Below are positions 43,364 through 60,340 of a DNA stretch of 64,000 bases, piece after piece. A program made the position numbers and the translations under genes. The stretch covers positions 763 to 64,762 of the forward strand of contig JBHEOA010000058.1 of the NCBI GenBank assembly GCA_046261835.1. The letters run 5' to 3'. The notes under the pieces were generated by a model. The model worked only from the letters and a program-made list of their open reading frames with translations, was not told the origin of the DNA and did no database searches. This stretch comes from Gemmatimonadota bacterium. GTDB taxonomy: Bacteria; Gemmatimonadota; Gemmatimonadetes; JACCXV01; JAHWKZ01. How positions within the stretch are numbered: the first letter of the stretch is position 1; each line of letters begins with the position of its first letter.

Positions 43364-43642
43364 TTAGACTCCCGAGAATGGGGTGGGCTCGGCCTGGAGC
43401 CAGCCGCCGTCGGGACCCGGCCGTGAAACCATGAGCGTCTGGGCGTCGAAGTCTTCGTCGTAGGTCGAGAACCAGAGCGCGCCGTCGACGGGATCGATCG
43501 CGGGGAAGGTCTCGTGCCGATCGTCGAGGGAGACGACGCCGGGCTGGACTTTCTCGGGTTCCTGCGCCACGAGGGGGCCGGCGAGCGTCGCCGAAAGCGC
43601 GCCGGTGAAGAGCCACGCCGCGGCCGCCGCGGCGAGCCTCAC
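43364..43642 (-). CDS. Small secreted protein (GTG start overlapping typA stop)
   Basis: VRLAAAAAAWLFTGALSATLAGPLVAQ signal-like N-terminus; GTGA overlap with typA. Confidence 0.35.
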   Translation of the reverse strand: MRLAAAAAAWLFTGALSATLAGPLVAQEPEKVQPGVVSLDDRHETFPAIDPVDGALWFSTYDEDFDAQTLMVSRPGPDGGWLQAEPTPFSGV

Positions 43643-45513
43643 CGCGCTGCCAGCGCCTCCAGCCGTCGCTCTGCGCGCTTGCGGTCGTTCTGGTCGAGGA
43701 TCGCCTTGCGGACGCGCACCGACTTCGGTGTCGCTTCGACCAGCTCGTCCTCGGCGATCCACTCGAGCGCGGCGTCGAGCGTGAGCTCGCGCGGCGCCTT
43801 GAGCCCGACATCCACCTCGCGCGTCGACGAGCGATGGTTGGTGACGTGCTTCCGCTTGGTTGGGTTGCACGGCAGGTCACCCGGCCGCGCGCTCTCGCCG
43901 ACGATCATGCCGGCATAGACCCGGTCCATCGGCCGCACGAAGAGCGTCCCGCGCGCCTGGAGGTTCTCGAGCGCGTACGTCGTCGACTCGCCGCTGTGGA
44001 GCGAGATCATCGCCCCCCGGTCGCGGTGCTCGACTTCCCCACGCCAGGGCCCGAACGCTCGAAACCGGCTGGCCATGACGCCGAGGCCGCGCGTGTCGGT
44101 CAGGAACTCGGTGCGGTAGCCGATCAACCCGCGCGTGGGGATCGTGAACTCGAGCCGCACGAGCCCCGTTCCGTGATTGTGGACGCCGGACAGCTCCCCC
44201 TTCCGTCGCGCGATCTTCTCGTAGATCACGCCCTGATACTCCTCAGGCGCATCGATCACCAGGTCCTCGATCGGCTCGAGCACCTCGCCGTCGGCCCTCT
44301 CGTGCGTGATCACCTCGGGGCGCGAGACGCAGAGCTCGATCCCCTCGCGCCGTATCTCTTCGATCAGGATCGCGAGGTGGAGCTCCCCGCGACCGGAGAC
44401 CTTGACGCCATCGGGCCGGCCCAGGTCTTCCACCTTGAGGGCCACGTTGACCTTGGCCTCACGCTCGAGGCGATCCTTGATCTGGCGCAACGTGACGGCC
44501 TTCCCCTCACTGCCGGCGAGAGGCCCCGAGTTCACCAGGAAGAGCATCGACACGGTCGGCTCCTCGATCTCGAGCGGCGGGAGGGCGGAGCCCTCGAACG
44601 ACGGATGCGACAGCGTATCGCCCACCCCGACATCTTCGAGCCCCGCGATCCACACGATATCCCCGGCCGTGATCTTCTCGACCGGCTCGCGCTCGATCCC
44701 GCGGGTCGTCCACAGGTGGGACGAGCGCCCGTTCTCGCGCGCGGCGATGCCGAATGAAGCGCGCTCCTCGTCCTCCCACCGGACGACGGTGCGGACGAGG
44801 GGGTCACCGGCGCGGTGGGTTCCCTGGAGCACTCGGCCACACCCGATCCGGCCCAGGTAGTCGCTCCAGCCGAGCGTCGAGACCTGCATCCGGAATGGCG
44901 CATCGAGAATCACCGCGGGCGGAGGTACATGATCGACGATCGTCTGGAACAGCGGGGCCATTCCATCGCGCGCATCGTGGAGCTCGCGCATGAACCACCC
45001 ATGGAGGCCCGAGCCGTACAACACCGGGAAGTCCGCCTGCTCGTCGGTGGCCCCAAGCTCGATGAATAGATCGAAGGTGTCGTGGAGCGCCTCGTCAGGG
45101 CGTGCGTTCGGCCGATCGACCTTGTTGAAGATGACGATCGGCTTGAGACCCAGGCGCAGCGCGCGCATCAGGACGTACCGCGTTTGGGGCATCGGCCCCT
45201 CGTTGGCGTCGACGAGAAGCAGCGCTCCGTCGACCATCGACAGCACGCGCTCGACCTCGCCCGAGAAGTCGGCGTGCCCGGGCGTATCGACGATGTTGAT
45301 CCGGTACCCCTCCCACTCGACGGTGCAATGCTTCGAGCGAATCGTGATCCCGCGCTCGCGCTCGAGGTCGTCGGAGTCCATCACGCGCTCCGCCACGTCG
45401 GCGTTTTCGCGGAAGGTGTGCGCCGCCCGGAAGACCGCGTCGATCAGCGTGGTCTTGCCGTGATCGATGTGCGCGATGATCGCAAGGTTGCGGATGCGTT
45501 CGGGCGCCGGCAT
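43639..45513 (-). CDS. typA: Translational GTPase TypA/BipA
   Basis: IRNLAIIAHIDHGKTTL...DTPGHADF...NKVDR G-domain, and BipA-specific C-terminal domain. Confidence 0.9.
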   Translation of the reverse strand: MPAPERIRNLAIIAHIDHGKTTLIDAVFRAAHTFRENADVAERVMDSDDLERERGITIRSKHCTVEWEGYRINIVDTPGHADFSGEVERVLSMVDGALLLVDANEGPMPQTRYVLMRALRLGLKPIVIFNKVDRPNARPDEALHDTFDLFIELGATDEQADFPVLYGSGLHGWFMRELHDARDGMAPLFQTIVDHVPPPAVILDAPFRMQVSTLGWSDYLGRIGCGRVLQGTHRAGDPLVRTVVRWEDEERASFGIAARENGRSSHLWTTRGIEREPVEKITAGDIVWIAGLEDVGVGDTLSHPSFEGSALPPLEIEEPTVSMLFLVNSGPLAGSEGKAVTLRQIKDRLEREAKVNVALKVEDLGRPDGVKVSGRGELHLAILIEEIRREGIELCVSRPEVITHERADGEVLEPIEDLVIDAPEEYQGVIYEKIARRKGELSGVHNHGTGLVRLEFTIPTRGLIGYRTEFLTDTRGLGVMASRFRAFGPWRGEVEHRDRGAMISLHSGESTTYALENLQARGTLFVRPMDRVYAGMIVGESARPGDLPCNPTKRKHVTNHRSSTREVDVGLKAPRELTLDAALEWIAEDELVEATPKSVRVRKAILDQNDRKRAERRLEALAAR

Positions 45514-45614
45514 AAGTCTCGAATCTGTCGCGGTTTCGGGCAAAAAAGAAGCGCCCCGGGTGGGCGCATCGTGAACTACTTCAAATATACCGTTCCTTTA
45601 CCTCCGAAGCCAAC

Positions 45615-46580
45615 CTAGACCGACCCCAGCAGATCGGCGACCTGTTCGGGGTCCTCCTTCAGGTCTCGCCCGGCGACGAGCCGAAAACTCTCGGTCTGTG
45701 ACGCCAGCTGGCTCACCACCTCGAAGTGACGCGGGATCGCCTCCGAGTCCAGCGTGAAGACCAGGCTCTGGGCGAGCAGTCGAGGCACGGCAAGCATCGG
45801 ACTCAGCGGTACGAGCCGGCTCTTCTTCGCCGAGGTGATCTCCGGAAAGAAGAGCAACCGAGGCACGCAAGACTCGACCCCGCGGTCCGGGAAGAGCGCA
45901 TGCATGTCGAGCCGCCGCTTCCCCACATGGGGATCCACGCCCCCATGCTCGCCTACCTCGGGAAAGCTGCGGGCCAGCGCCGGATCGAGGTAGAGATCCC
46001 GCCGGAGAGGCAACGCTTCCACTCGGCCGTCACGGCATCTCAAGAACACAGCGTCGTCCGCGAGATACTTCCACCCCCGCCGTACGAGGCTATAGGTGTG
46101 GGTGGACTTGCCGCTTCCGCCCGCGGCCACGAACAGGTAGCCGACGCCTTCCCGAATTACCGCAGAAGCGTGAAGGCCGTAATACCCCCGCCGCCTCATG
46201 AGCAGCAGGAGGCTGTAGATGAGGAGATCCTCGCGCACATGGGCCGGCTCGGGCGGGAGCACTCCTTCCGCGACTCCCGCCTGAGTATCGAGACGGATCG
46301 AATGATTCTCACAGCTGAGATGGATCCAATTCCCCTCCACCCGAGCATGAATGCTGTCGACCTGGGGAGGGCCCTGCGCCTCCTCCGCTCCAGAGGCCAC
46401 CGGTGAGTGAGCCGAGAGCCGAAGCACGATGCCATCCTGATTCGGTACCGGATCCGAGGGGATGAAACCGAGGCTCTCGAGAAGTCTGTGAACGGCTCTC
46501 TTGACCGGAGGACTGTCCGCTCGCAGATCGAGCTGAAGACCGTGCAGCGAGTAACTCTCTCGAATGCTATCCACCATCAA
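45615..46580 (-). CDS. HPr kinase C-terminal-domain-like P-loop protein (HprK-related kinase)
   Basis: GLHASAVIREGVGYLFVAAGGSGKSTHTYSLVRRGWKYLADDAVFL matches the HprK C-domain P-loop. N-terminal ~130 aa unrecognised. Confidence 0.55.
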   Translation of the reverse strand: MMVDSIRESYSLHGLQLDLRADSPPVKRAVHRLLESLGFIPSDPVPNQDGIVLRLSAHSPVASGAEEAQGPPQVDSIHARVEGNWIHLSCENHSIRLDTQAGVAEGVLPPEPAHVREDLLIYSLLLLMRRRGYYGLHASAVIREGVGYLFVAAGGSGKSTHTYSLVRRGWKYLADDAVFLRCRDGRVEALPLRRDLYLDPALARSFPEVGEHGGVDPHVGKRRLDMHALFPDRGVESCVPRLLFFPEITSAKKSRLVPLSPMLAVPRLLAQSLVFTLDSEAIPRHFEVVSQLASQTESFRLVAGRDLKEDPEQVADLLGSV

Positions 46581-46655
46581 GACTCCGCGAGTGATGATGA
46601 AGTATATCCCGTCGTGATAGGACGGACCTTCGCGGGACGACGGCGCACCAGCACC

Positions 46656-47231
46656 TCAACGCTCCATCACGATTCCAAGTGCCCGAGCCGCGTCGACGAC
46701 CGCTGGATGTTCGACTGCGAGAGGCTCAGGCTCGCTGTGCTCGATCGCCGTATCGAGCCGGTCGCTGAACAGGACGACCGTGTGCCACTCCCCGAAGAAC
46801 GCCGACCACCAGCGAAGCCCCCACCACCCTGCCGCGTGAATCGTGGCGGCAATTCCCTGAGTGACGTGCCGCTGCCGCGATGCGATCCGGTCGGGCGCCA
46901 GATCGAGCTCCACCAGCGTACCGGGCTCGCACAGGTCGACGACCCGAGCTCTCTTGGCCTCGGTCAGGGTGAAGCCTACGAGCGCGAGCTGCTTCGTTTC
47001 GATGACGAGGTCAGCCGGCTCGAGCAACTGACCACGATAGCCCTGTATCCACTCGGCCACCGCGTGATCCGGCGTCTCCGCCAGATAGAGGACGCTGCCC
47101 ATCGTAAACGGCAGATCGAAGCGTCCCTCGCCTTGATCCGGCGGGATGAACGTCGGCGACCAGCGCATGCCTTCGCGAGCCTTCGGATCCCAAGGAAAGA
47201 CGCGCCACGCTACGGTGGCGGCCGGGCTCAC
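46656..47231 (-). CDS. RES-domain toxin (RES-Xre type II toxin-antitoxin)
   Basis: Size, position downstream of an Xre/DUF2384-like gene, 4-nt overlap, and conserved R..E..S-type layout. Confidence 0.65.
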   Translation of the reverse strand: MSPAATVAWRVFPWDPKAREGMRWSPTFIPPDQGEGRFDLPFTMGSVLYLAETPDHAVAEWIQGYRGQLLEPADLVIETKQLALVGFTLTEAKRARVVDLCEPGTLVELDLAPDRIASRQRHVTQGIAATIHAAGWWGLRWWSAFFGEWHTVVLFSDRLDTAIEHSEPEPLAVEHPAVVDAARALGIVMER

Positions 47232-47590
47232 GCGTAGGCGCCGCTCTTCAGGGCCTGGACCGCGGCCACGACCTCGGAGAGGTTGCCTTCACGGAGCACG
47301 TCGATTGGACGCCGATTTCCCAGATGGGCATTGAATCCCTCGAGCCATTTTCGGATGGACGTGGGCTGGAGGTATCCGGAAAGCAGCTCGACGACAGCGT
47401 CGAGGCCGACCAGCCGATCGGCGGCTTCCGGGCTGGGCTCGGTGCGTCCCTCTCGCCACCGGCGAACCTGGGAGCGGTTGACGCCGATCGCATCGGCGAT
47501 GGCGGAATCGGAGGGAAAGGCCCGCCGGGCGGACTCGATCCGGATGACGATCGGCGGGGCTTCCTTGCGGGCCGTCGAAGCGCGTGCCAT
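47228..47590 (-). CDS. Xre/DUF2384-like antitoxin of the RES-Xre pair
   Basis: HTH (AIADAIGVNRSQVRRWREG) and C-terminal DUF2384-like segment (KWLEGFNAHLGNRRPIDVL). Confidence 0.6.
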   Translation of the reverse strand: MARASTARKEAPPIVIRIESARRAFPSDSAIADAIGVNRSQVRRWREGRTEPSPEAADRLVGLDAVVELLSGYLQPTSIRKWLEGFNAHLGNRRPIDVLREGNLSEVVAAVQALKSGAYA

Positions 47591-47656
47591 GTGCAACAGT
47601 TTACGTTGCGCGCCGGGAAACGTCAACGGGGCCTCGGGCCCCCCGCCTGGCCAGCC

Positions 47657-48181
47657 TCAGCGCGGGATCGCCAGATCGACCGTGCCCGCCTCGACCTCCG
47701 CCACGCCACTGTCGGGACGCAGGTAGATCGCGATACGGTACCGACCGTCCGGGAGCCCGTCGTCCAGGATCTCATAGGCGCTCACCGTCGGCGTCTTGAA
47801 CTCGCGCGACTCGCCCGAGCGGAGCTCCATCTCGACCAGCGCCATAGTGCAGGCGACCTCGGTGGCCTGGTCCCAGACCGGCGTCGACTCCCCCGGGCGG
47901 TAGGCACGCAGAAGCACCACGCAGCCGTCGGGAAAAACGACGGTACGGGTCGAGCTTCCGCGATTCGTGATCGTGGCCTCCCCGACGAGCTGGACCGGGA
48001 AGGACTCCATGACCAACACGTCGCCGCTGTACTCCATCTCGTTCTGGACGATCGTGCCCGTGCGCGGCGCCTGGTCGCCGTCGCGGCCGCCATTGTCCGG
48101 CGAGGTGGACGACGCACACCCGGCGGCGAGCGTCGTCCCGACCCATCCGAGAATCATCGCCATCTTTCCTATTCGCTTCAT
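47657..48181 (-). CDS. Hypothetical lipoprotein
   Basis: Lipobox TLAAGC. Confidence 0.45.
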   Translation of the reverse strand: MKRIGKMAMILGWVGTTLAAGCASSTSPDNGGRDGDQAPRTGTIVQNEMEYSGDVLVMESFPVQLVGEATITNRGSSTRTVVFPDGCVVLLRAYRPGESTPVWDQATEVACTMALVEMELRSGESREFKTPTVSAYEILDDGLPDGRYRIAIYLRPDSGVAEVEAGTVDLAIPR

Positions 48182-48255
48182 ATGACTACTCCCATTCAGG
48201 TTATGCCGTTTATCTCAAGTGACCCATGATCTCATCTCGAAGCGCCCTCATCTCA

Positions 48256-48810
48256 TCATACCCCTGAGGTCCCGGCCGATTCCCCCTCCACCATCGTCGC
48301 GCGATCGATCCGGTCGAGTTTCGGGAACTCGCGGGCGAGATATACCTCTCCTTCGGTGTGAATCCGATCCTGCCGTGGCCCCTTACCCTGCGGCGGCCCC
48401 TCACCGTAATCGGAGTACAGGCGGTCGATCACGTCCATCCCCTCGACGACTTTCCCGACCGGCGCGAATCCCATGGAGTCGAGACGGGTGTTGTCGCGCA
48501 GGTTGATGAAGAGCTGAGTCGTGCGGGTGTTCGGTCCGGAGGTGGCGAACGTCAGCGTACCGCGCGTGTTGCTCGCCTCGACCGAATCATCGGGGATCGA
48601 CCTCCCGCGCCACTTCGCGGAGATCTTCGGATCAGCCGCGATCCCGAACTGGACGACGAAGTCGTCGAGCACCCGGAAGAACCGGGCTCCGTCGAAGTAT
48701 CCCGCCTCCACCAGCTCCCGTAACCGCTCGGCGCCTTCCGGAGCCCAGTCCGGATGCACCTCGACGATCACGTCACCTTGAGTCGTCTCGAACCGGATAC
48801 GGAACGTCAT
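48256..48810 (-). CDS. Cyclophilin-type peptidyl-prolyl cis-trans isomerase
   Basis: FFRVLDDFVVQFG...TLTFATSGPNTRTTQLFINL...GKVVEGMDVIDRL cyclophilin motifs. Confidence 0.8.
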   Translation of the reverse strand: MTFRIRFETTQGDVIVEVHPDWAPEGAERLRELVEAGYFDGARFFRVLDDFVVQFGIAADPKISAKWRGRSIPDDSVEASNTRGTLTFATSGPNTRTTQLFINLRDNTRLDSMGFAPVGKVVEGMDVIDRLYSDYGEGPPQGKGPRQDRIHTEGEVYLAREFPKLDRIDRATMVEGESAGTSGV

Positions 48811-48853
48811 GTCACTCAATCGACCTGCCTCGTGTGGAGTGATTCGAGCGTCG

Positions 48854-49726
48854 TCAATACAACTCCGCCAGCATGCAGCGGGCGCTGCCTCCGCCGTACG
48901 TCTCGATCGTTTCGAGATCGGCGCTGACGATTTTCACGAGGGCCTCGAGCACCCCGCGCTGCTCCTGCGTGAAGGTCCGCCAGGCTCGCTCCGACATCAC
49001 CAGAAAGCGATCGCCTTGCGCGTTCTCGAGCTCCAACGCGTTGGCGCAGAACGCGTGGAGCTGATCGAGCCCGATCTCGATCACGACCCGGCCTGAACGC
49101 GACAGCTCCTCGAGCACCCGGTGCTGGGCGTCAGTCGGCTCGATCGCAGCGATGCATGCGATCGCGTACCCCGTCCCCAGCGTCAGCACCACGTTCGTGT
49201 GGTAGATGACGCGCCCGTCGCGATCGCGCGCCGTGAATACCACCGGTCGGTAGCCGAACCGCTCGGCCCACGTCTCGACGAGCTCGGCGTCGGTGCGCGA
49301 GGAGGTACTTGCATACACGTCGCGCGCGGGCTCATCAATGACGAGGCTTCCGGTGCCCTCGAGGAAGCGGGCGCCCGCTTCTTGGGCCGTCAAGTCGACC
49401 GGCTCACCGTACCGGTCGCGCAGCCAGTCGACGATCGCGCGCGTCCGCTCGCGGCGGCGGCTGGGCGCCATCATGGGATAGAGGATCCACGAGCCCGAGG
49501 GATGGGTCGAGAACCAGTTGTTCGGGAAGACTGCGTCGGGGGGAAGCGCTCCGTTCGGGGCGAATGTGACGACTTCGATGCCCCGCGAGTCGAGCGCAGC
49601 TCGCAGCGCCCGGAACTCCTCGCGCGCTCGCGCTTCGACGACGGCGGGATCGCCTTCGGCCGGCGCCTGGAACGCATTGTCCAGCGCCGTCTCGGGGTTT
49701 GCGCCGAAGCCGATCGGCTCGACCAT
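48854..49726 (-). CDS. Amidinotransferase-superfamily hydrolase (DDAH/arginine deiminase-related, CtlX-like)
   Basis: C-terminal catalytic Cys motif ETYGGGSARCMLAELY and DDAH-like pentein fold length (290 aa). Confidence 0.6.
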   Translation of the reverse strand: MVEPIGFGANPETALDNAFQAPAEGDPAVVEARAREEFRALRAALDSRGIEVVTFAPNGALPPDAVFPNNWFSTHPSGSWILYPMMAPSRRRERTRAIVDWLRDRYGEPVDLTAQEAGARFLEGTGSLVIDEPARDVYASTSSRTDAELVETWAERFGYRPVVFTARDRDGRVIYHTNVVLTLGTGYAIACIAAIEPTDAQHRVLEELSRSGRVVIEIGLDQLHAFCANALELENAQGDRFLVMSERAWRTFTQEQRGVLEALVKIVSADLETIETYGGGSARCMLAELY

Positions 49727-49747
49727 GAGGACCGCGCGGGCCGGCAG

Positions 49748-50173
49748 CTAACCCACCTCCCGGTAGATCCAGGCACCGAGAATCGAGGCGAGCATAACCT
49801 CGAAGAATCCCCAGACGATGACGATCAGGAAGAGCTCGGTCGGCAGGAAGTCCCAGACGACGTTGCCGAGAAAAGGCCACAGCCATCCCAGGACCCAGAC
49901 CAGAAACCCCGCGCGCAGAGCGGTTCGAGGGTCCGCGCCGAAGCGCGGTCGCATCGCGGCATAGGTCCAGACGAGAACGAGCCCCAGGATGAATACCATC
50001 GCCGCCGAGATCGCGGCGTCACCGGGGCCGTAGCCTTCGATCCCGCGCGCCTGGCGCGCGGCGTCCCAGCGCGAGCGGAGCACGATGCGGTGGAGAATGT
50101 ACTCGCCCACGTCCATGACGATGCCGGCGATCGCCCCGCCGAGCGCCACGCGTCCGAGCCGTATCCCGTGCAT
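49748..50173 (-). CDS. Small 4-TM membrane protein, tandem paralogue 1 of 3
   Basis: Shared motifs G.VAG.V.N.GEY.L and WLYAAMRPRFG.GPKTA with the two upstream genes. Confidence 0.5.
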   Translation of the reverse strand: MHGIRLGRVALGGAIAGIVMDVGEYILHRIVLRSRWDAARQARGIEGYGPGDAAISAAMVFILGLVLVWTYAAMRPRFGADPRTALRAGFLVWVLGWLWPFLGNVVWDFLPTELFLIVIVWGFFEVMLASILGAWIYREVG

Positions 50174-50176
50174 GCG

Positions 50177-50635
50177 CTAGCGCACTTCGACCGTCGAGGT
50201 CGCGGCCGCCGGCTTCTCCTGATAGAGCCAGGCTCCGATCAAGGTCGCGATCGGGATCTCGAACAACCCCCAGATCAGCGTGATCGTGCTGATGTCTCGG
50301 GGGAAGAGACCGATGGCCTGATTCCACGCCCAGAACGTACCACTCAGAACGAGCCACAGGACGAGACCGGTGATGAACGCAGTTTTAGGGCCGGGTCCGA
50401 AGCGTGGTCGCATCGCAGCATACAGCCACACGGCCACGATCCCGAGGACGAACGTCACGGCGACGAAGATCGCGATCGTCGAGGTGGACTCTTGTGGCGG
50501 TTTTCCGAGCGCCTCATACGCCGCGCGCCACTTTTCCCCGAGGATCGGCTCGTTGAGGATGTACTCGCCGATGTTCCAGACGAGTCCCGCCACGAGTCCC
50601 CCCACGATCACTCTGGCCATGTTGATCTTGCCCAT
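50177..50635 (-). CDS. Small 4-TM membrane protein, tandem paralogue 2 of 3
   Basis: MGKINMARVIVGGLVAGLVWNIGEYIL...VWLYAAMRPRFGPGPKTA; 3-nt gap to paralogue 1. Confidence 0.5.
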   Translation of the reverse strand: MGKINMARVIVGGLVAGLVWNIGEYILNEPILGEKWRAAYEALGKPPQESTSTIAIFVAVTFVLGIVAVWLYAAMRPRFGPGPKTAFITGLVLWLVLSGTFWAWNQAIGLFPRDISTITLIWGLFEIPIATLIGAWLYQEKPAAATSTVEVR

Positions 50636-50645
50636 GCCCCCCCTC

Positions 50646-51089
50646 CTACCGAGCAACCGAAGCGGCCGGCGCAGTCGGCTCTTCCTTGTAGAGCCATCCG
50701 CCGACCATCGCCGCAATCAGGTACTCGAAGAACGCCCACACCGCGCCGATCATCATGAGGCGGGAGGGATAGACGGGGTTGAGAGCGTTCCAGACGTAGG
50801 GCGGGATCGCTAGCAGAAACCAGGTGAAGATCCCGGCGATCGCTGCTGTCTTGGCCCCCGGCCCAAAGCGCGGCCGGATGGCTGCATAGAGCCAGACCAG
50901 CGCGATCCCGATCACGAATCCGAGCAGGACGAGAACGCCGATCTCGGCGCCGGTCATGGGCGGCACGCTAACCGCCTCCGCCGCGGCCTCCCAGTCCTCC
51001 GCCAGGATGACTGCATTGAGCAAATACTCTCCGATGTTCAGGACCAGACCGGCTACGAGACCGGCTCCGATGACGCGACCCACGCTCAT
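50646..51089 (-). CDS. Small 4-TM membrane protein, tandem paralogue 3 of 3
   Basis: MSVGRVIGAGLVAGLVLNIGEYLL...VWLYAAIRPRFGPGAKTA. Confidence 0.5.
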   Translation of the reverse strand: MSVGRVIGAGLVAGLVLNIGEYLLNAVILAEDWEAAAEAVSVPPMTGAEIGVLVLLGFVIGIALVWLYAAIRPRFGPGAKTAAIAGIFTWFLLAIPPYVWNALNPVYPSRLMMIGAVWAFFEYLIAAMVGGWLYKEEPTAPAASVAR

Positions 51090-51231
51090 GCGGCCCCTCC
51101 GTTTTGTGGGGATGAACGATCGTGATCACCCAGCGGGGCGACACGCTCGTCAGCGCACGGTAACGGGAGACAGCATGACGAAGCAAGGCCGCACCCATGC
51201 CGGCCGCGGCGGAAGGGCTGCGCGCGGGCGC

Positions 51232-51672
51232 TTAGCGCGTGACGGTCAGCTCGACTCGGTAACGCGTGGGATCGATAGGGGGATCAGCTGCCCTGGGGAC
51301 GGGATCGACGTCGACCAGCCGCACCGTGATCCCCAGTATCGCCCGCTCGCGGGGCTCGATCCCGGTGTTGAGGACGACCGGCTGGGGCGCGAACTCCGCG
51401 ATCCGACTCGACACCTCGAGCCTGACCGCCGCGTTTCCTTGCCACGGACACTGGACGTCGGTGGGACAGCGGGAGTCCTCGGTCACCCGGTCGAAGTGGA
51501 TCAGGACCTCGGTGCCACCGACGTGAGCGGTCTCGCCCGGAGCGAGCGTGAACGCGTCTCCCTGCGAAACCTCGATCTCCAAGCCGGTCGTTCCCTCGCG
51601 CACACCGGTCGAGCCTTCGCCGTAACAGGCGATCGCAACCCAGACGAGGAGCACGAGGAAGGACCATCTCAT
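51232..51672 (-). CDS. Hypothetical lipoprotein
   Basis: Internal start MRWSFLVLLVWVAIAC (lipobox); C-rich short domain. Confidence 0.4.
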   Translation of the reverse strand: MRWSFLVLLVWVAIACYGEGSTGVREGTTGLEIEVSQGDAFTLAPGETAHVGGTEVLIHFDRVTEDSRCPTDVQCPWQGNAAVRLEVSSRIAEFAPQPVVLNTGIEPRERAILGITVRLVDVDPVPRAADPPIDPTRYRVELTVTR

Positions 51673-51751
51673 GGGGAACAAACTACTCCATAGCACCAGG
51701 AGTTGCGCGTTCGGAGCGCTCGATCGACCGCTTTGAGCTAGGTCCGCAGGG

Positions 51752-52318
51752 CTACTCCCGGGGGATTCCGATGAAGCGTGGGATTCGACGCGCGTAGGCC
51801 TCATACCTATCGCCATAGGTTCGCCGGAGCCAAGCCTCCTCTGCGAAAGGACCGAGCACGAGCCCCACGACAGCAAGCACCGCGGCGATCCACAGTAGCC
51901 GCGAGTTGGCGAGGATGGCAAACCCCAACGTCGCAAGAATGTCGCCGACATACTGCGGGTTGCGGGAGTAGCGGTAGGGTCCGCGTTCCTGGAAGGGGCC
52001 GCCGAGGCCCGACGAGACCGGGCGACCCAGCGCGCGGACGCCCCAGTCGGCGATCCCGAGCCCGAAGGCGACAAGAGCGCCGCCCACCAGGATCCGTTCG
52101 TCGGCCTTCCAAAGGAACGTATTCCAATCGAGCCACGCGAGCGCGATCGCGGCCGCGACGCCCACGATCACGGGCCAGAACGTTACGTGGAACTGCCAGG
52201 TTTCCTTGCCGGGTGGTGGCCAGACAGGCTTCTCCGGCCGAAGGAGCGAGCCGACGACGGCCGCGAGCAGGATGACCTCGCACGCGATCGTGATCGCGAA
52301 GGCGACCCAGGTTTCTAC
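51752..52318 (-). CDS. Isoprenylcysteine carboxyl methyltransferase / phospholipid methyltransferase-family membrane protein
   Basis: ERGPYRYSRNPQYVGDIL...AEEAWLRRTYGDRYEAY ICMT/PEMT signature; multi-TM. Start trimmed to avoid overlap with the VOC gene. Confidence 0.6.
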   Translation of the reverse strand, partial: VETWVAFAITIACEVILLAAVVGSLLRPEKPVWPPPGKETWQFHVTFWPVIVGVAAAIALAWLDWNTFLWKADERILVGGALVAFGLGIADWGVRALGRPVSSGLGGPFQERGPYRYSRNPQYVGDILATLGFAILANSRLLWIAAVLAVVGLVLGPFAEEAWLRRTYGDRYEAYARRIPRFIGIPRE

Positions 52319-52680
52319 TTGGCGCTCTCGTCGGGCTGCATGATCCCGTGGACGTTTCCGTCGGGGTCCTTGAAGTAGCAGAACCAACCCACCCCCGCAA
52401 CCGCCATCTTATCCGTCACCATCGTTCCGCCTGCCGACTTCACCTTCTCCCGGTACCTCTCGAGGTCAGGCACGTCGAGCGTGTTGATGACCGGGGGCGC
52501 CTCGGGCATTCGTCGCATGAAGCCGCCGTTGATCCCCGGTCCGTCGGTCCCGGTCGTCACGAGCCAGTACTCGACCGGTCCCTGCCATTTGTTGAACTTC
52601 CAGCCGAAGACGTTTCCGTAGAACTTCGCCAGCTCCTCGGGGTCGTCGGACATGATCTCGAAGTGAACGATGCGGGGCAT
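52315..52680 (-). CDS. VOC (glyoxalase/bleomycin-resistance) family protein
   Basis: MPRIVHFEIMSDDPEELAKFYGNVFGWKF...WFCYFKDPDGNVHGIMQ. Confidence 0.65.
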   Translation of the reverse strand: MPRIVHFEIMSDDPEELAKFYGNVFGWKFNKWQGPVEYWLVTTGTDGPGINGGFMRRMPEAPPVINTLDVPDLERYREKVKSAGGTMVTDKMAVAGVGWFCYFKDPDGNVHGIMQPDESAK

Positions 52681-52710
52681 GGGGCCTCCTGGGTTGGGGT
52701 GAAATGTCCG

Positions 52711-53544
52711 CTACCGTTTCGGCTCGGCGACGAATTCCAGCCACGCGTTGAGCGCCAGGGCATCGAGTGCGCGGTGCGCGAGTCGGCGCACCGGGTTTCG
52801 CCGCTTGACGGCCGCACTGGTGCCAGCATAGAGGACGCGGAAGCCATTCTTCTCGAGTAGCCGGTTCAGCGTCTCCCTATCGAAGTACCACAGATGGTGC
52901 TCGGGGCTCAGGTGCTTGAAGGGTCGAGGCTTCAAGCCCGAGCGACTCAGAAAGCTCTTCCACCGTGACATGAAGCTCGCCTCATTGGGAAGCACCAGGT
53001 GAAGAATGCCGCCGTCCCCGAGGAGCTCGGCGACGCGCGTGAGAAAAGCATTGGGGTCGAGAACGTGCTCGAGGACGTGGTGGACGGTAACCACATCCCA
53101 GCGGTCCAGGTCGAGCTCGGCGATATCCCCCAGATAGAGGTCGATTCCGTGCGTAGCCAGGCGTTCGCGGTTGACATCCGTGATGTCGGTGCCGCCGAGC
53201 CGACCCACTCCCGACATCTTCGAGAGATGGATGAGGAAGTGACCGAGCCCAGTTCCGATATCGAGGACGCAGGGGTTGGACGCTCGCGTATAGTGCAGGA
53301 ACGTGGTCGCGTATCGGTGGCTGGTCTCGGCGCTGTACGCAGCGATCTCTGGATCGATCCTACGCCGACGGTCTTCGTCGAAGTACGGGTCGCCATAGAT
53401 CGCCAGGATTTCGGCCTCTGACGGCCGCGGGTTCATGTACCTGAGCCCGCAACGACGACAGTGGACGATCGTGTAGCCGGCGTAGTGGCGCCCCCAGAAC
53501 TCGTCGTCAGCGATCTCGCAGATCGGGCAGCGGACCGGCTCCAC
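52711..53544 (-). CDS. Class I SAM-dependent methyltransferase with N-terminal zinc-ribbon
   Basis: CPICEIADDEF...CRRCGLRY zinc ribbon; VLDIGTGLGHF motif I; DVVTVHHVLEHV. Confidence 0.65.
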   Translation of the reverse strand: MEPVRCPICEIADDEFWGRHYAGYTIVHCRRCGLRYMNPRPSEAEILAIYGDPYFDEDRRRRIDPEIAAYSAETSHRYATTFLHYTRASNPCVLDIGTGLGHFLIHLSKMSGVGRLGGTDITDVNRERLATHGIDLYLGDIAELDLDRWDVVTVHHVLEHVLDPNAFLTRVAELLGDGGILHLVLPNEASFMSRWKSFLSRSGLKPRPFKHLSPEHHLWYFDRETLNRLLEKNGFRVLYAGTSAAVKRRNPVRRLAHRALDALALNAWLEFVAEPKR

Positions 53545-54570
53545 TCAATCCGGCTCGAAGTAGGGATCGAGCGCAAAGGGATCCTCGAAAAAGCGGGAGT
53601 GCCACTGGGGGGCGACCAGGTCGAGGAGGAGCGCGGTCGCGGCGCCGAGCGGATAGAACGCGACTCGGCGGTCGTTCGAGAGGGTCGACATCTGCAGCCC
53701 CTCCAGGATTTCGCGACGCAGTCGCGCCGCCGCCTCGGCGTACGGCTCGTGGTCCGGCAGCGGATCGGGCGGCTCGCCTTGGAGCGCCGCGAGCTCGGCC
53801 AACCGAAGCTCGGTGTAGCGTGCCACACCTTCCTGCCAGAGCTGGAACTGGAAGTATCGGTAGTCCTCCTCGGAAAGCGTCTCACGGAACCGCTCGCGCG
53901 CGGAATGATACGCCTCCAGACGGTTCGCGAAGTCAGGGGTCCCGGCGAGCTCGAGCGTACGCAGGAGGTGGCTCGCGAGATCGACGTACCGCCCGCGCAC
54001 GTTCGGGTCTTCGTACGGGAACGGGTAGTCGAGCATCCATTGCCCCGTCGTGTCGCCGTGCGCGAGGTCGAGCTCGGCGACGCCGTCGAAGTAGTCGGGC
54101 TGGGACATCTGGAGCTGATGGAAGCGTTCGTGGAGGACCGAGAGCACCCATGCGGTCGTTCCCTTCCCCGTCGCCTCGGCGGTTCCCACCACGATCGTCG
54201 GAACGCCGCCGACCGCCGGGAACGAGGCGAGGAAGTGGGGCGGGAAAACGGCGGCGCGATGGAAAACTGCGACCCCGAGCTGGGCATTGTCACCGAGCTG
54301 AGCGAAATCATCGGACGGTCGCGGGTGGCCGATCAGGAACTCGTCCGTTGAGGTGACGAGCAGAAGGGCGAGCGGGATTTCGTTCCAGCCAGGCCAGAGC
54401 GAGTCACCGACCAGGCTCGAGACGCGCATCGATTCCGCGATCTGCGCCCGTTCGCCGGAGGGGATCGAGGGATCCGTGAGGGCCGTCGCGCTCGGCGGAG
54501 GCCCGACCTGTGCGATCAGCTCGGCGACCAGAGCGAACGTCAAGAGGGAGATGAGCGAACAGGCCCGCAT
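53545..54570 (-). CDS. Secreted protein with HExxH motif (HERFHQLQ); possible metallohydrolase
   Basis: Signal peptide MRACSLISLLTFALVAELIA; single HExxH; otherwise unrecognised. Confidence 0.4.
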   Translation of the reverse strand: MRACSLISLLTFALVAELIAQVGPPPSATALTDPSIPSGERAQIAESMRVSSLVGDSLWPGWNEIPLALLLVTSTDEFLIGHPRPSDDFAQLGDNAQLGVAVFHRAAVFPPHFLASFPAVGGVPTIVVGTAEATGKGTTAWVLSVLHERFHQLQMSQPDYFDGVAELDLAHGDTTGQWMLDYPFPYEDPNVRGRYVDLASHLLRTLELAGTPDFANRLEAYHSARERFRETLSEEDYRYFQFQLWQEGVARYTELRLAELAALQGEPPDPLPDHEPYAEAAARLRREILEGLQMSTLSNDRRVAFYPLGAATALLLDLVAPQWHSRFFEDPFALDPYFEPD

Positions 54571-54592
54571 CGGCTTCAGTACACCAGCCTGT

Positions 54593-55096
54593 TCATGTCG
54601 GTTCTACCAGCGTCGCGACGATGCGCTCGACGATCCGCTCGGGCGGAGCCTCGGCATCGACGACGAGCGCTTCGTCGGGGCCGGGCGCCTCGAGATCGGC
54701 GAATTGGCTCTCGAGCAGCTCGGGTCCTGCGAAATGGTTCTTCCGCCCGGACAGCCGCTCGGCGATCACGGACCGCCCAGCCGCCAGGTGGACCAAAGCG
54801 ACCTCGGGACGATCTGTGCCGAGCCGCCGACGGTACGCACGCTTGAGCGCCGAGCAGGCGACGACCGCCGGTTTACCCAACGAGAGCCGCTCATCGATCT
54901 CCCGCCGCACCGCCTCGAGCCACGGCAGCCGATCGTCGTCCGTCAAGGACTCGCCTCGTGACATCTTGGCGACATTTCCGGCAGGGTGGAAATCGTCGGC
55001 GTCGACGAAGTCCCAACCCAGCTCGTTCGCCAAGCGCCTTCCGATCGTCGTCTTGCCGGCACCGATCACACCCATGAGTACGATGACGCGACCCGT
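54593..55096 (-). CDS. gntK: Gluconokinase (shikimate-kinase-like P-loop); start probably GTG upstream of the listed Met
   Basis: RVIVLMGVIGAGKTTIGRRLANELGWDFVDADDFHPAGNVAKMSRGESLTDDDRLPWL is the canonical GntK N-terminus. Confidence 0.65.
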   Translation of the reverse strand, partial: TGRVIVLMGVIGAGKTTIGRRLANELGWDFVDADDFHPAGNVAKMSRGESLTDDDRLPWLEAVRREIDERLSLGKPAVVACSALKRAYRRRLGTDRPEVALVHLAAGRSVIAERLSGRKNHFAGPELLESQFADLEAPGPDEALVVDAEAPPERIVERIVATLVEPT

Positions 55097-55211
55097 CTCA
55101 ATCCTCCTCGGCCGGCCGCGGTTCGATACGGACGATCGGACGGCGCCTCGGTTCCAGTGCCATCAGGTGATCGTAGATCGCGACGAGATCCTGGTCATGC
55201 ATCGCGGCGTA

Positions 55212-56084
55212 TCACGCCCAGGGCATGGGGCTTTCCGGCCCTTCTCCCCCACCCGGCGGAGGCACCGTGTTGGGCCGACTTGCAGCCCCCTTGAAGCGAG
55301 TCATGAATCGCTCCTTCGTCCACGTCCCGATGCCCGTCACCGAATCGGGTGTGATGTTGGCGGATCGAATGATCCATTCGTCCGTCCAGAACTCGTGGCC
55401 GCCACCGAAGGCGAGCTCGTGCTGGAGGTTCGGCGGCTCGCCGGGCGTGTGGCAAAATTCGCAACCCGAGATCGCTACGAGATACCTGCCATACGCCGGT
55501 CCATCCGACACGGACGGCGTCCGCTCCGGCGTCTCCGCCGATCGCGCAGAGAATCTGGCGATCACGCTGAAGGGAAGCCCCAATGGCTTGCGGGGGTGCT
55601 CCACCGGGATGGGCTCGAGCGATCGGAGATAAGCGATCAGAGCCTCCAGATCCTCGCGCGACATGATGCGATAAGCATCGTAGGGCATGGCGGGGAAGAG
55701 CGCCTTGCCGTCCTTGCGGATCCCGCTCGCGATGGCCCGCGCGATCTCGCCGTTGGTCCAGTCGCCCAGCGCCGCCGGCGTGATGTTAGGCGGGAAGAAA
55801 GGGGCGCCCTCCTCGACCCACGACATGTTCTCCTTTCCGAGCCCACCTTCCACGATCGGACTTCCCGGCGCGTCCGTATCGCGCATGGCGTGGCATTCGA
55901 CGCATTGAGCCAGGTTGTGGAAGAGGTAGCGCCCGCGTTCGATCGTCGTGGGGGTCATGGCTACCTCGAGGTCGGCCGGCGGCTCGGATTTCGGATAGAC
56001 GATCAACACGTAAAGCAACGCGAGCACGACGAGCGACAGCACGCCGATGACCAGGTAAGCAAGGACCCGTAAGAGCTTTCGCAT
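55212..56084 (-). CDS. Membrane-anchored dihaem c-type cytochrome
   Basis: N-terminal TM; two CxxCH motifs (CVECH, CEFCH). Confidence 0.65.
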   Translation of the reverse strand: MRKLLRVLAYLVIGVLSLVVLALLYVLIVYPKSEPPADLEVAMTPTTIERGRYLFHNLAQCVECHAMRDTDAPGSPIVEGGLGKENMSWVEEGAPFFPPNITPAALGDWTNGEIARAIASGIRKDGKALFPAMPYDAYRIMSREDLEALIAYLRSLEPIPVEHPRKPLGLPFSVIARFSARSAETPERTPSVSDGPAYGRYLVAISGCEFCHTPGEPPNLQHELAFGGGHEFWTDEWIIRSANITPDSVTGIGTWTKERFMTRFKGAASRPNTVPPPGGGEGPESPMPWA

Positions 56085-56103
56085 TCCCCTTCCTTCGACC
56101 GAT

Positions 56104-57507
56104 CTAGAAGTGGATCGCCGCGCCGTGCGCCGCGTGAGCGGCCTCGTGCACCGACTCGGCGAGGGTGGGGTGGGCGTGGATCGTGTGGATCAGCTCCTCG
56201 ACCGTGCCCTCCAGCCGCAGGACCGCGCCCGCTTCGGCGATCAGCTCCGTCGCCTTGTAGCCGATGATGTGAACGCCCAGCACCTCGTCGTGCACTGCCT
56301 CAGACACGACCTTGACGAACCCCTCGGTGTGGCCGGCGATCTTGGCCCGGCCGCTGGCCAGGAACGGGAATTTGCCGACCCGGACCTCATATCCCTCTTC
56401 GAGCGCCCGCTCCTCGGTGAGGCCGACGCTCGCGACCTCCGGGTCGCAGTAGGTGCAGTTGGGCGTCTCGCGGTAGGGGACCGGGTGGACTTCACGACCC
56501 GCGATCCGCTCGACGACCATGACACCTTCCATCGAGGCGACGTGGGCCAGCCATGGTGTCGGGTTGACGTCGCCGATCGCGTAGATCCCCGGCTCGGCGG
56601 TCTCGCACCACTCGTCGACCGCTACGTAACCGCGTTCGGTGCGGACCCGCGTGTTCTCGAGTCCGATCGCCTCGGTGACCGGAGCGCGGCCGATCGCGAC
56701 CAGCAGGTATTCAGCCTCGACCATGCCTCCGCCCTCACCCGACAGCGCAACCCCGACGCGTTCGCCGCGCCGGTCGGCCCCCTCGAAACGAGTCGATGTT
56801 CTGACATCCATCCCCCTCTTGCGGAACGCTTTAGCGAGTTCAGTCGCCACTTCTTCGTCCTCGATCGGGAGGAGCTGAGGGATGGCTTCCACCAGGGTGA
56901 CGTCGGCCCCGAACGCGCGATAGATCGAAGCGAACTCGACCCCCACCGCGCCCGCCCCGATCACGACCAGGGACCGCGGCATCGCCGGGAGCTCGAGGAT
57001 GTGGTCCGAGGAGAGAATCCGCTCGCCGTCGAACGGAGCGCCCTGGATGGGTCGTGGCACCGAGCCCGTGGCGATCACGATGTGCCGCGTCGCGAGCGTG
57101 TGCGCGCGGGCGCCGTCGGTATCCTGGTGCACCGCGACCTCACGGGGAGTTTCGATCCTGCCCCAGCCCTGAATCACCTCGACCTTCCACTTTCTGAGGA
57201 GGCCCGTGACTCCACCCGCGAGCTGGCGCACGATCCCACCCTTGCGCTGCTGGACCTTCGACCAGTCGACTCCGACCTCGCCGATCACGAGACCGAACTC
57301 GTCGGCGTGGAGCATCTCCTGGTAGCGGGCTGCGTTCTCGAGGAGCGCTTTGGTGGGAATGCAGCCGCGGTGAAGGCAGGTCCCGCCTTGAAAGGGGTCC
57401 TTCTCGACGAGGGCGGTCCTCAACCCGAGCTGGCCCGCGCGGATCGCCGCCACGTAGCCGCCGGGGCCGCTACCGATGATCACGACGTCGTAGTGCGGCT
57501 CGGCCAT
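56104..57507 (-). CDS. lpdA: Dihydrolipoyl dehydrogenase (E3)
   Basis: YDVVIIGSGPGGYVAAIRA...GGTCLHRGCIPTKALL redox-active disulfide; C-terminal HAHPTLAE. Confidence 0.9.
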   Translation of the reverse strand: MAEPHYDVVIIGSGPGGYVAAIRAGQLGLRTALVEKDPFQGGTCLHRGCIPTKALLENAARYQEMLHADEFGLVIGEVGVDWSKVQQRKGGIVRQLAGGVTGLLRKWKVEVIQGWGRIETPREVAVHQDTDGARAHTLATRHIVIATGSVPRPIQGAPFDGERILSSDHILELPAMPRSLVVIGAGAVGVEFASIYRAFGADVTLVEAIPQLLPIEDEEVATELAKAFRKRGMDVRTSTRFEGADRRGERVGVALSGEGGGMVEAEYLLVAIGRAPVTEAIGLENTRVRTERGYVAVDEWCETAEPGIYAIGDVNPTPWLAHVASMEGVMVVERIAGREVHPVPYRETPNCTYCDPEVASVGLTEERALEEGYEVRVGKFPFLASGRAKIAGHTEGFVKVVSEAVHDEVLGVHIIGYKATELIAEAGAVLRLEGTVEELIHTIHAHPTLAESVHEAAHAAHGAAIHF

Positions 57508-59427: not shown

Positions 59428-60336
59428 ATGATGCGGGTATTCATCACCGGCGGCTCGGGTTACATCGGCTCCAAGGTGGTCCAGGCATTCGTCGCGGCGG
59501 GGCACGAGGTGACCGCTCTGACCCATTCACCGGAGAACATCCCGGAGCTGGAATCGCTCGGTGCGACGCCGGTTCGGGGAGACGTGCAGGACCCGCTCGG
59601 ATGGTCGGAGATGGCGGCCGGCCACGACGAGCTCGTCCACCTCGCCCTCGACGATGGTTCTCCGGTCGATGCCGACCTGGGGGTGATCGATGGGCTCCTG
59701 GAGGTCGGCCGCACGACGGTCGGCAGGAACTGCCACATGATCTATACCTCGGGGTGCTGGGCCCTGGGCGAAACTGGCGACGAGCCGGCCGACGAAACGG
59801 TGTCGCTCGATCATCCCGCCCCGATTGTAGCATGGCGGCCGGCGCACGAGGCTCAGGTACTCGGCTCCTCCGACGAGACGTTCTTTACCGCGGTCATCCG
59901 GCCCGGGATCGTCTACGGCGGTCGCGCCGGTTTGCTGGCGCCGCTCTTCGAGTCGGCTGCCGAGAACGGCGCCGCCGAGTATATCGAGCGCGGCGACAAT
60001 CGCTGGTCGCTCGTCCATCGCGACGATCTGGCCCGACTCTACCTCGAGGTGGCCGAGAAGCGCGCCAGCGGCGTTTTCCACGGGGTCGACGGCATGGCGC
60101 TCCCGGCTCGCGACGTCGCCCAGGCGGCGAGCCGCGCGGCAGGAGCGGGTGGCAAGACGAAGTCGATCACCCTGACCGAAGCCCGGCAGCGACTGGGCCC
60201 GGCCGCTGACGCTCTCGTGCTGGACCAGGTGCTCGTGGGCAAGCGTTCGCGGGAGCTGGGATGGGAGCCCCGCCGAACTTCGTTCATCGACGAGGCCGAC
60301 GGGGCGTTCCGGGAGTGGAAGCTGGGCCGCTTCTAG
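59428..60336 (+). CDS. NAD-dependent epimerase/dehydratase-family (extended SDR) protein
   Basis: MRVFITGGSGYIGSKVV Rossmann N-terminus. Confidence 0.7.
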   Translation: MMRVFITGGSGYIGSKVVQAFVAAGHEVTALTHSPENIPELESLGATPVRGDVQDPLGWSEMAAGHDELVHLALDDGSPVDADLGVIDGLLEVGRTTVGRNCHMIYTSGCWALGETGDEPADETVSLDHPAPIVAWRPAHEAQVLGSSDETFFTAVIRPGIVYGGRAGLLAPLFESAAENGAAEYIERGDNRWSLVHRDDLARLYLEVAEKRASGVFHGVDGMALPARDVAQAASRAAGAGGKTKSITLTEARQRLGPAADALVLDQVLVGKRSRELGWEPRRTSFIDEADGAFREWKLGRF

Positions 60337-60340
60337 AGCG

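Follow-up and report, generated by a model that had tools for sequence, protein, structure and literature searches.

Three tandem DUF1761-like membrane protein genes upstream of a putative citrullinase gene: a lineage-specific expansion in Gemmatimonadota

In a Gemmatimonadota bacterium, three adjacent genes for small, mutually similar membrane proteins lie directly upstream of the genes for a pentein-fold hydrolase and a cyclophilin, which raises the question of whether the five genes form a conserved membrane system around the hydrolase or whether the three have multiplied locally. The window, i.e., the whole stretch of 64,000 nucleotides analyzed here (contig JBHEOA010000058.1, positions 763 to 64,762), had initially been annotated in favor of the former, with a possible multi-subunit transporter or membrane complex coupled to a guanidino-modifying enzyme. 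The features of the locus are given below in window positions.

51090-51231, minus strand: intergenic sequence of 142 nt upstream of paralogue A
50646-51089, minus strand: paralogue A, open reading frame of 147 aa, DUF1761-like 4-TM membrane protein
50177-50635, minus strand: paralogue B, open reading frame of 152 aa with ATG at 50635, DUF1761-like 4-TM protein
49748-50173, minus strand: paralogue C, open reading frame of 141 aa, DUF1761-like 4-TM membrane protein
48854-49726, minus strand: CtlX-type pentein-fold hydrolase (putative citrullinase), 290 aa, PF19420
48256-48819, minus strand: cyclophilin-type peptidyl-prolyl isomerase (PPIase), 187 aa, PF00160

All five genes were confirmed on the minus strand at the positions first assigned to them, with spacers of 10 nt between A and B, 3 nt between B and C, 21 nt between C and the hydrolase, and 34 nt between the hydrolase and the PPIase. 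The strand is common to 18 consecutive genes of unrelated functions, so the co-orientation of the triplet with the hydrolase is little informative. A GGAGG Shine-Dalgarno sequence was found 8 nt upstream of the ATG of A. For B, the open reading frame listing extended the gene to an upstream TTG (50716), from where it would run into A; the ATG at 50635 is preceded by AGGAGG, and the resulting start MGKINMARV agrees with the family consensus N-terminus MxxINxxRV. The 3-nt gap suggests translational coupling of C to B. As the only sizeable gap upstream of the gene run from A to the PPIase, the 142-nt region is where a promoter would most likely lie; the promoter/terminator scan returned neither a sigma-70-like consensus nor a terminator there, and Rfam returned no match of any kind, riboswitches for guanidine or other ligands included. 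The tRNA scan was uninformative for the triplet region.

Identity was 48% between A and B and 36% between A and C, tblastn between the copies gave E-values of 1e-24 to 1e-39, and the family HMM matched all three at about 1e-59 to 1e-63. By sequence comparison, the paralogy of A, B, and C is far above chance level. With these identities and spacers of 10 and 3 nt, the small 4-TM protein has genuinely been triplicated in tandem, and no fourth copy was found in the window by tblastn or the family HMM. Both sequence motifs reported earlier were recovered, GLVAGLV.NIGEY.L in A and B, with the variant GAIAGIVMDVGEYIL in C, and W(L/T)YAA(I/M)RPRFG..(P/A)(K/R)TA in all three. A neighbor-joining tree placed A, B, and C in three separate clades, with C on a long branch as the copy that has diverged most. 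The core is kept in C, comprising the N-terminal Arg, the GEY Glu of TM1, the RPRFG loop, the FE Glu of TM4, and the Y.E motif. Against the orthologues of the closely related locus L001, dN/dS amounted to 0.14, 0.13, and 0.14 for A, B, and C, respectively, so that each copy is under purifying selection.

No Pfam or NCBIfam model matched A, B, or C at its curated threshold. The DUF1761 profile (PF08570) scored 22.9 bits in A (E 1.1e-4), 22.4 bits in B (E 1.5e-4), and 17.8 bits in C (E 4e-3), all short of the gathering threshold of 31 bits, and the alignments were near full-length (model positions 5-121 of 123). The same sub-threshold, near full-length match occurred in 41 of 86 relatives, and precomputed PF08570 matches were present on a few close relatives (P0033, P0058, and P0060). 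DUF1761 proteins are comparable in length (~125 aa) and in their four hydrophobic helices, and hydropathy and the AlphaFold2 model place the triplet within the DUF1761 range of about 120-150 aa with four TM helices. In contrast, the signatures GEY, WLYAA.RPRFG.G.KTA, and W.FFE are the family's own and occur in no curated model. From these profile alignments, A, B, and C are likely remote relatives of DUF1761, while formal Pfam membership fails.

The initial description of an unrecognized family therefore stood with respect to curated models above threshold, but not with respect to public sequences, among which thousands of members and the sub-threshold DUF1761 matches were found. The family comprises more than 7,600 homologues, all annotated as hypothetical, and 2,211 clusters at 50% identity. 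Its members come chiefly from Acidobacteriota, Gemmatimonadota, and some Alphaproteobacteria. A sizeable membrane family of more than 2,000 such clusters without a curated model is hereby brought to notice. Weak secondary Pfam matches were to other uncharacterized membrane DUFs such as DUF2177, and the literature on DUF1761 and DUF2177 held expression lists and heliorhodopsin neighborhoods only, with no function given. A profile search of PDB sequences returned nothing below E 3, and the Pfam, NCBIfam, and PDB profile searches showed no similarity of A, B, or C to any known transporter family. Matches to holin_4, PycTM, FPN1, CbtA, GlnX, and FtsH in NCBIfam and Pfam were rejected as noise, with E-values of at least 0.002 and short TM stretches only.

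Hydropathy showed four hydrophobic segments in each of the three proteins, in agreement with the four TM helices first predicted for them and with the AlphaFold2 model of A (pLDDT 92.7, pTM 0.84). The model contains four TM helices (residues 3-28, 47-75, 79-103, and 109-134) and a short loop helix. Over A, B, C, and 83 relatives, net charge was +1.1 at the N-terminus, -1.3 in loop 1, and +2.9 in loop 2, and the topology common to the three paralogues is an N-in/C-in four-helix bundle. The cytoplasmic loop RPRFG.G.K is strongly basic and invariant. E21 (GEY, TM1) and E122 (FE, TM4), two glutamates inside the membrane, are near-invariant (83 of 86 sequences each), while R72, R74, Y68, Y134, and E136 were conserved in all 86. 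Natural two-domain fusions of the family were also found (P0121, P0139/P0272, and P0281). They are rare, and P0121, found once on a contig of 2 kb, could be an assembly artefact. The AlphaFold2 model of P0272 reached a pTM of 0.77 over 312 aa, with a deep alignment for one of the two domains only, and implies a compact 8-TM pseudo-dimer. Together, the common N-in topology and the rare fusions suggest that family proteins form parallel oligomers, and the multi-subunit membrane complex of A, B, and C that had been proposed is plausible on the same grounds.

Among known small membrane systems, the SMR/Gdx transporters (EbrAB, YkkCD) are likewise small and have four TM helices, the first of which carries an essential Glu embedded in the membrane; they are often encoded by adjacent paralogues that form heterodimers. 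A, B, and C share with them the small 4-TM build, the membrane Glu in TM1, and the adjacent paralogues. SMR heterodimers, however, are antiparallel with opposite charge bias, whereas A, B, C, and the 83 relatives show one charge pattern and are all N-in, and head-to-tail natural fusions of two 4-TM domains argue for a parallel arrangement unlike that of SMR. In length, the three exceed SMR proteins by about 35 residues, and no SMR family match appeared among their Pfam/NCBIfam hits at E up to 1. The amide and urea channels AmiS and UreI have 6 TM helices and are encoded in amidase and urease operons. The likeness lies in a small membrane protein gene beside a C-N hydrolase gene, which is CtlX here and another enzyme in a few other lineages. 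Such adjacency is rare in the family by raw count, unlike in the AmiS/UreI operons, and A, B, and C gave no AmiS/UreI Pfam match.

The hydrolase matched PF19420 at E 9e-80. The NCBIfam CtlX model NF046062 aligned over its full length with 330.7 bits (E 7e-99), about 3 bits below the equivalog cutoff of 334. The motifs FPNN (in DAVFPNNWF) and HTN (in IYHTNVV) were present and invariant in four orthologues of the lineage. The catalytic Cys of the pentein hydrolase lies near the C-terminus in GGGSARCM, within the ending GGGSARCMLAELY, and is invariant in the lineage alignment. CtlX, a putative citrullinase, is set apart from guanidino-acting penteins by FPNN instead of FTRD and HTN instead of HLD, with Asn at the positions of the guanidino-binding Asp residues; the conversion of citrulline to ornithine is putative even in the founding members (Price et al. 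2022, PMC9007349). From its motifs, the hydrolase is re-annotated as a CtlX-type putative citrullinase. The pentein fold first assigned to it was upheld by the PF19420 match and the GGGSARCM Cys, while its description as a guanidino-modifying DDAH/amidinotransferase had to be given up, with Asn at both substrate-binding Asp positions. The PF19420 label “DDAH_eukar” was discarded as a clue to the substrate, as it reflects the fold family.

In proteobacterial examples of CtlX, ocd or aruFG lie adjacent, whereas neither adjoins the CtlX gene of the window; none was found among the genes scanned at 41.6-64 kb, nor in the syntenic loci. An AGCS Na+/amino-acid symporter stood beside CtlX in L002, L091, the P0021 contig, L094, L118, L130, and L160, while none was found in the window and L001 lacks it as well. 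This symporter is the likelier partner of CtlX, lost from this genome segment, and its recurrence offers a lead for the unproven CtlX pathway. As a metagenome query, the CtlX protein by itself retrieved no confirmed relative, and an alignment was used in its place; the comparison set consisted of 80 CtlX loci from metagenomes.

Within the lineage of the window, one syntenic slot holds one (A), two (A and C), or three (A, B, and C) copies. The A type is the sole copy in the one-copy CtlX-linked loci L002 and L003, C occurs in two- and three-copy loci, and B is restricted to three-copy loci. Wherever CtlX occurs in the lineage, it directly follows the family gene or genes, at a gap of 17-22 nt. 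The arrangement of triplet, hydrolase, and PPIase was conserved in the close relatives (L001, L087-L090, and the P0021 contig) but not beyond the lineage. In L004, the family gene occurs but CtlX does not; L094, conversely, has CtlX and AGCS but no family gene. Across other species, exactly one family copy was present in 80 of 80 genome loci, without CtlX within 6 kb, which largely corresponds to the known single-copy family that the initial annotation had set against its own proposal. Reciprocally, the family gene was absent from all 80 CtlX loci. Neighbor clustering placed no neighbor family in more than 8 of the 80 family loci, so that no universal partner emerged, and the operon-like neighbors were heterogeneous. 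As a genomic system, the triplet is a lineage-specific expansion in a narrow Gemmatimonadota lineage rather than a new conserved machine. With CtlX motifs in the enzyme and the linkage absent from both sets of 80 loci, the idea of a transporter coupled to a guanidino-modifying enzyme is removed as unsupported, though the 17-22-nt adjacency leaves room for a local functional link with CtlX inside the lineage.

The explanation we favor, to which as a whole we give about an even chance, is one in which A, B, and C, as functional tandem paralogues, belong to a large uncharacterized family of ~140-aa, DUF1761-like inner-membrane proteins, expanded within the lineage, form an oligomer, and adjoin CtlX incidentally. 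In the fixed slot, copy number grew from A to A and C and then to all three, each kept as an orthologous clade. The family proteins would act as parallel oligomers, so that A, B, and C probably form one hetero-oligomer here. The buried pair E21/E122 would be the working center, most likely one at which a small solute is bound or conducted in a proton- or cation-coupled manner. Co-transcription of the triplet with the downstream CtlX gene is probable, and their adjacency would be a synteny accident of the lineage, or an association that is local and optional at most. Oligomerization and function can be approached by experiment through E21, E122, and the RPRFG loop, through the fusions, and through a lineage in which the copy number is one, two, or three.

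It is possible, if unlikely, that A, B, and C instead act independently, as sub-functionalized or redundant homo-oligomers or monomers of a housekeeping membrane protein that was duplicated locally, with neither a hetero-complex nor a link to the neighbors. Elsewhere, a single family gene suffices in all 80 loci, the one to three copies among close relatives indicate that B and C are dispensable, and unrelated genes in a long co-oriented series make up the neighborhood. Against such independence, each paralogue persists as its own orthologous clade under a dN/dS of about 0.14, and C retains all core residues despite its high divergence. In addition, the 3-nt spacing of B and C, probably translationally coupled, is typical of stoichiometric partners, and the natural fusions pair a canonical domain with a divergent one, like A or B plus C. 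A role tied to the neighbor is rather improbable, namely that the three proteins are a multi-subunit transporter or channel for the CtlX reaction (citrulline in, or ornithine, carbamate, or ammonium out), perhaps replacing AGCS. The tight one-strand spacing of 10, 3, and 21 nt, the position directly upstream of CtlX in the lineage, and the missing AGCS in the window and L001 would fit such a role, as would family genes directly upstream of other C-N hydrolases in three further synteny groups, i.e., Amidohydro_1 with an amino-acid permease (Pyrinomonadaceae), Amidase (L028), and Amidohydro_2 (L007/L080). These adjacencies are, however, few by raw count, partly non-independent, and drawn from phyla rich in amidohydrolases. 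The mutual absence in the two sets of 80 loci, the separation of the two genes in L004 and L094, and the lack of resemblance to any known transporter family also argue against this role. Compensation for the loss of AGCS by extra copies was rejected, as the P0021 contig holds three copies and AGCS together, and the triplication thus preceded that loss.

Very improbable, in our judgment, is a non-transporter such as a membrane-embedded enzyme, an anchor, or an assembly or regulatory factor (e.g., lipid- or quinone-facing), in which the Glu, Tyr, and Arg residues would be a catalytic or binding site. The compact conserved set of E21, Y68, R72, R74, E122, Y134, and E136, the size of the 4-TM monomer, which is small for a transporter, the missing transporter match, and the secondary matches to membrane DUFs such as DUF2177 are consistent with it, but no catalytic motif of known membrane enzyme families was detected, and R72 and R74 are predicted in the cytoplasmic loop, outside the membrane-embedded core. 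Likewise a long shot is a wider conjecture in which DUF1761-like proteins are small parallel-oligomeric, proton- or cation-coupled modules whose paired 4-TM bundles mimic the proton-relay core of RND proteins via the two Glu. They would serve small nitrogenous solutes of C-N hydrolases (CtlX, amidases, and amidohydrolases), with A, B, and C as a heteromeric citrulline/ornithine version after the loss of AGCS. The RND superfamily itself (MmpL, HpnN, TriC, NPC1, and Dispatched) differs from A, B, and C in sequence family and in its 12-TM architecture with periplasmic domains.

The PPIase lacks a signal peptide and passed PF00160 with 89.5 bits against a gathering threshold of 21.7 (E 3.6e-25). 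Its gene lies after CtlX/AGCS in L001 and L002 and before the family gene in L004, and it is probably a syntenic neighbor rather than a functional part.

Three consecutive genes, A, B, and C, encode small membrane proteins of one family and are followed by a pentein-fold hydrolase and a cyclophilin (PPIase).

Genes of the cluster
50646-51089, minus strand: A, 147 aa
50177-50635, minus strand: B, 152 aa, ATG at 50635
49748-50173, minus strand: C, 141 aa
48854-49726, minus strand: pentein-fold hydrolase, 290 aa
48256-48819, minus strand: cyclophilin, 187 aa

The start of B was set by the AGGAGG ahead of its ATG and by the consensus N-terminus of the family. Gaps of 10, 3, 21, and 34 nt separate A from B, B from C, C from the hydrolase, and the hydrolase from the cyclophilin, respectively. 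In the alignment A is 48% identical to B and 36% to C with 44 invariant columns among the three, and inter-copy tblastn matches had E = 1e-24 to 1e-39, while neither tblastn nor the family HMM found a fourth copy in the window. Four hydrophobic segments were found by hydropathy, and the AlphaFold2 model of A (pLDDT 92.7, pTM 0.84, alignment of 86 homologues) contains four long helices and, in the first loop, a short one. Every detail of the tandem triplication described in the initial annotation was borne out by ORFs, gaps, identities, hydropathy, and this model.

The family had also been called unrecognised, which holds in that it has no curated model, but it is large and widespread. A, B, and C gave near full-length, sub-threshold matches to Pfam DUF1761 (E = 1e-4 to 4e-3, 17.8 to 22.9 bits versus a cutoff of 31) and no meaningful match in NCBIfam. 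Among 86 family members, weak Pfam matches were to DUF1761 in 41 and to DUF2177 in 13. More than 7,600 of the 8,000 candidates scored in a profile search were homologues, all annotated as hypothetical and spread over Gemmatimonadota, Acidobacteriota, Calditrichota, and further phyla. When all cluster representatives were searched with an HMM, 2,211 clusters matched with E no higher than 1e-3, of which 1,323 had 1e-10 or lower. The family is a distant offshoot within the DUF1761 superfamily, and A, B, and C add new members to this known, uncharacterised group through expansion at one locus. Nothing on the function of DUF1761 or DUF2177 was found in the literature.

In the window's own sub-lineage of Gemmatimonadota, the family genes occupy a fixed syntenic slot with PEMT and small hypothetical genes before and the hydrolase, a CtlX-type putative citrullinase, after. 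The contents of relatives' loci (L numbers; P0021 is a homologous protein) differ in copy number and in the presence of an AGCS Na+/amino-acid symporter.

Family genes and neighbours in the window and its relatives
Window and L001: three family genes (A+B+C); CtlX present; AGCS absent; PPIase present
L087-L090: three (A+B+C); CtlX present; contig ends before AGCS and PPIase
P0021 contig: three; CtlX, AGCS, and PPIase present
L091 and L092: two (A+C); CtlX present; AGCS present in L091, contig ends in L092; contig ends before PPIase
L002 and L003: one (A-type); CtlX and AGCS present; PPIase present in L002, contig ends in L003
L004-L006: one; CtlX and AGCS absent; PPIase upstream of the family gene

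A, B, and C formed three separate orthologous clades in a neighbour-joining tree, and their dN/dS against L001 (0.14, 0.13, and 0.14) was close to that of CtlX (0.15) and PPIase (0.17). By slot contents, clades, and dN/dS, the triplication is an old one in this lineage that selection has kept, and its taxonomic range is narrow.

Outside this lineage, neither the triplication nor its linkage with the hydrolase was conserved, and the outcomes that the initial annotation named as refuting it were largely observed: the family is single-copy, and the hydrolase is separable from it in relatives. Across 80 family loci from 80 different species (mostly Acidobacteriota and Gemmatimonadota, some Alphaproteobacteria, a few Zixibacteria and others), tblastn and the family HMM found exactly one family gene within +/-6 kb in every case. 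CtlX was found within +/-6 kb in none of the 80, and a cyclophilin in one, distant at 5 kb. The commonest neighbour family occurred in at most 8 of the 80 loci, such clusters reflecting local synteny, and Pfam scans of operon-like neighbours on both sides gave a heterogeneous set. Conversely, in 80 loci from metagenomes that encode relatives of CtlX (37-59% identity), no family gene was found. Within the lineage, L004-L006 lack CtlX.

The hydrolase matches PF19420 (E = 9e-80) and scored 330.7 bits against the NCBIfam CtlX equivalog, just under the cutoff of 334. CtlX is defined by Asn in place of both guanidino-binding Asp residues, FTRD→FPNN and HLD→HTN (Price et al., PMC9007349). FPNN, HTN, and the catalytic Cys are present in the window hydrolase and invariant in the lineage orthologues, from which a ureido or amide substrate is predicted, and not the guanidino group proposed with the earlier DDAH/amidinotransferase assignment. 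The proposed reaction of the putative CtlX is citrulline to ornithine and carbamate. AGCS (Na_Ala_symp) is the recurrent CtlX neighbour in several lineages. Its gene immediately follows CtlX in the same orientation in L002 (7362-9116), L091 (5251-6393), L094 (7029-8792), L130, and L160, is on the opposite strand in L118, and also accompanies CtlX on the P0021 contig, which suggests an uptake-and-hydrolysis module. No AGCS gene occurs in the whole window, and it has been lost from both the window and L001. Compensation for this loss by the triplication was rejected, since the P0021 contig carries AGCS together with three family genes.

The best explanation is a composite, held at about even confidence as a whole: a lineage-specific tandem expansion, from A to A+C to A+B+C, of a DUF1761-like inner-membrane protein with four TM helices, which is normally single-copy and is probably a parallel oligomer around a conserved intramembrane glutamate pair, with the triplet upstream of CtlX by local synteny and AGCS as the more general CtlX partner. 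Within it, the identity and evolutionary history of A, B, and C are well supported. A transporter dedicated to and coupled with CtlX is improbable given the separability of the two, although C-N hydrolases do lie directly downstream of the family gene in a few loci. Four Pyrinomonadaceae genomes (L010, L025, L042, L044) carry an amino-acid permease, the family gene, and Amidohydro_1 in that order, and the family gene is directly upstream of Amidase in L028 and of Amidohydro_2 in L007 and L080. Four C-N hydrolase superfamilies, CtlX included, are thus found downstream, in loci that are few, partly non-independent, and from amidohydrolase-rich phyla. A recurring weak link may exist, and these adjacencies keep the coupling hypothesis alive at low probability.

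Net charges over 86 sequences (N-terminus +1.1, loop 1 -1.3, loop 2 +2.9, loop 3 -0.3) place, by the positive-inside rule, both termini and the invariant RPRFG.G.K loop on the cytoplasmic side (N-in/C-in), and A, B, and C share one topology. E21 (GEY motif, TM1) and E122 (FE motif, TM4) lie within hydrophobic helices and are each kept in 83 of 86 sequences, Y68, R72, R74, P108, Y134, and E136 are invariant, and A, B, and C retain all of these residues. An ion- or solute-coupled role is a tentative reading, and a non-transport membrane role is very unlikely. Rare family proteins have two domains head-to-tail, namely P0121 (325 aa), P0281 (309 aa), and, from two different clusters in the protein collection, P0139 (332 aa) and P0272 (312 aa). 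Because each domain has four TM helices, such fusions require a parallel arrangement. P0139, P0272, and P0281 combine one canonical and one divergent domain, the divergent one first in P0281, a pairing that echoes A or B with C. The AlphaFold2 model of P0272 (pTM 0.77, pLDDT 81.7 over 312 residues, second-domain alignment two sequences deep) would imply a compact 8-TM unit. The chances of a hetero-oligomer of A, B, and C are evenly balanced, and independent paralogues forming no complex are rather unlikely.

Co-orientation with the hydrolase and cyclophilin, the other basis of the earlier proposal, is real in that all share a strand but is little informative, since the minus strand carries 18 consecutive genes of unrelated function (43639-57507). 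From the typA side these include typA/BipA, an HPr-kinase-like gene, a RES/Xre toxin-antitoxin pair, a BsuPI-like gene, PPIase, CtlX, C, B, and A, followed by a small hypothetical gene, PEMT, glyoxalase, a methyltransferase, a 341-aa hypothetical gene, and, at the far end, a gluconokinase-like SKI-family kinase, cytochrome c, and a dihydrolipoamide-dehydrogenase-like gene. L001 and L002 share synteny with much of the block. Since the gaps are short, A through CtlX are likely co-transcribed. In the 142 nt upstream of A (51090-51231), a promoter and terminator scan detected neither a sigma-70-like consensus nor a terminator. No Rfam elements or tRNAs were found in the window.

Other features of the window
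46656-47626, minus strand: RES-domain toxin (191 aa, PF08808, E = 9e-13) and Xre/MbcA/ParS-type antitoxin (132 aa, PF09722 plus HTH_3), genes overlapping by 4 nt
47657-48181, minus strand: 174-aa protein, hydrophobic N-terminus, weak BsuPI (protease-inhibitor) match, E = 9e-4
51232-51681, minus strand: hypothetical protein of about 149 aa, no Pfam match
60001-64000: GC content lower at the window end (0.58-0.60, against about 0.66 before), with genes including a rhodanese and an HD-domain protein

The pair at 46656-47626 looks like a type II toxin-antitoxin system within the co-oriented block and also occurs in L001, where both genes flanking the cluster (47657-48181 and 51232-51681) are conserved.
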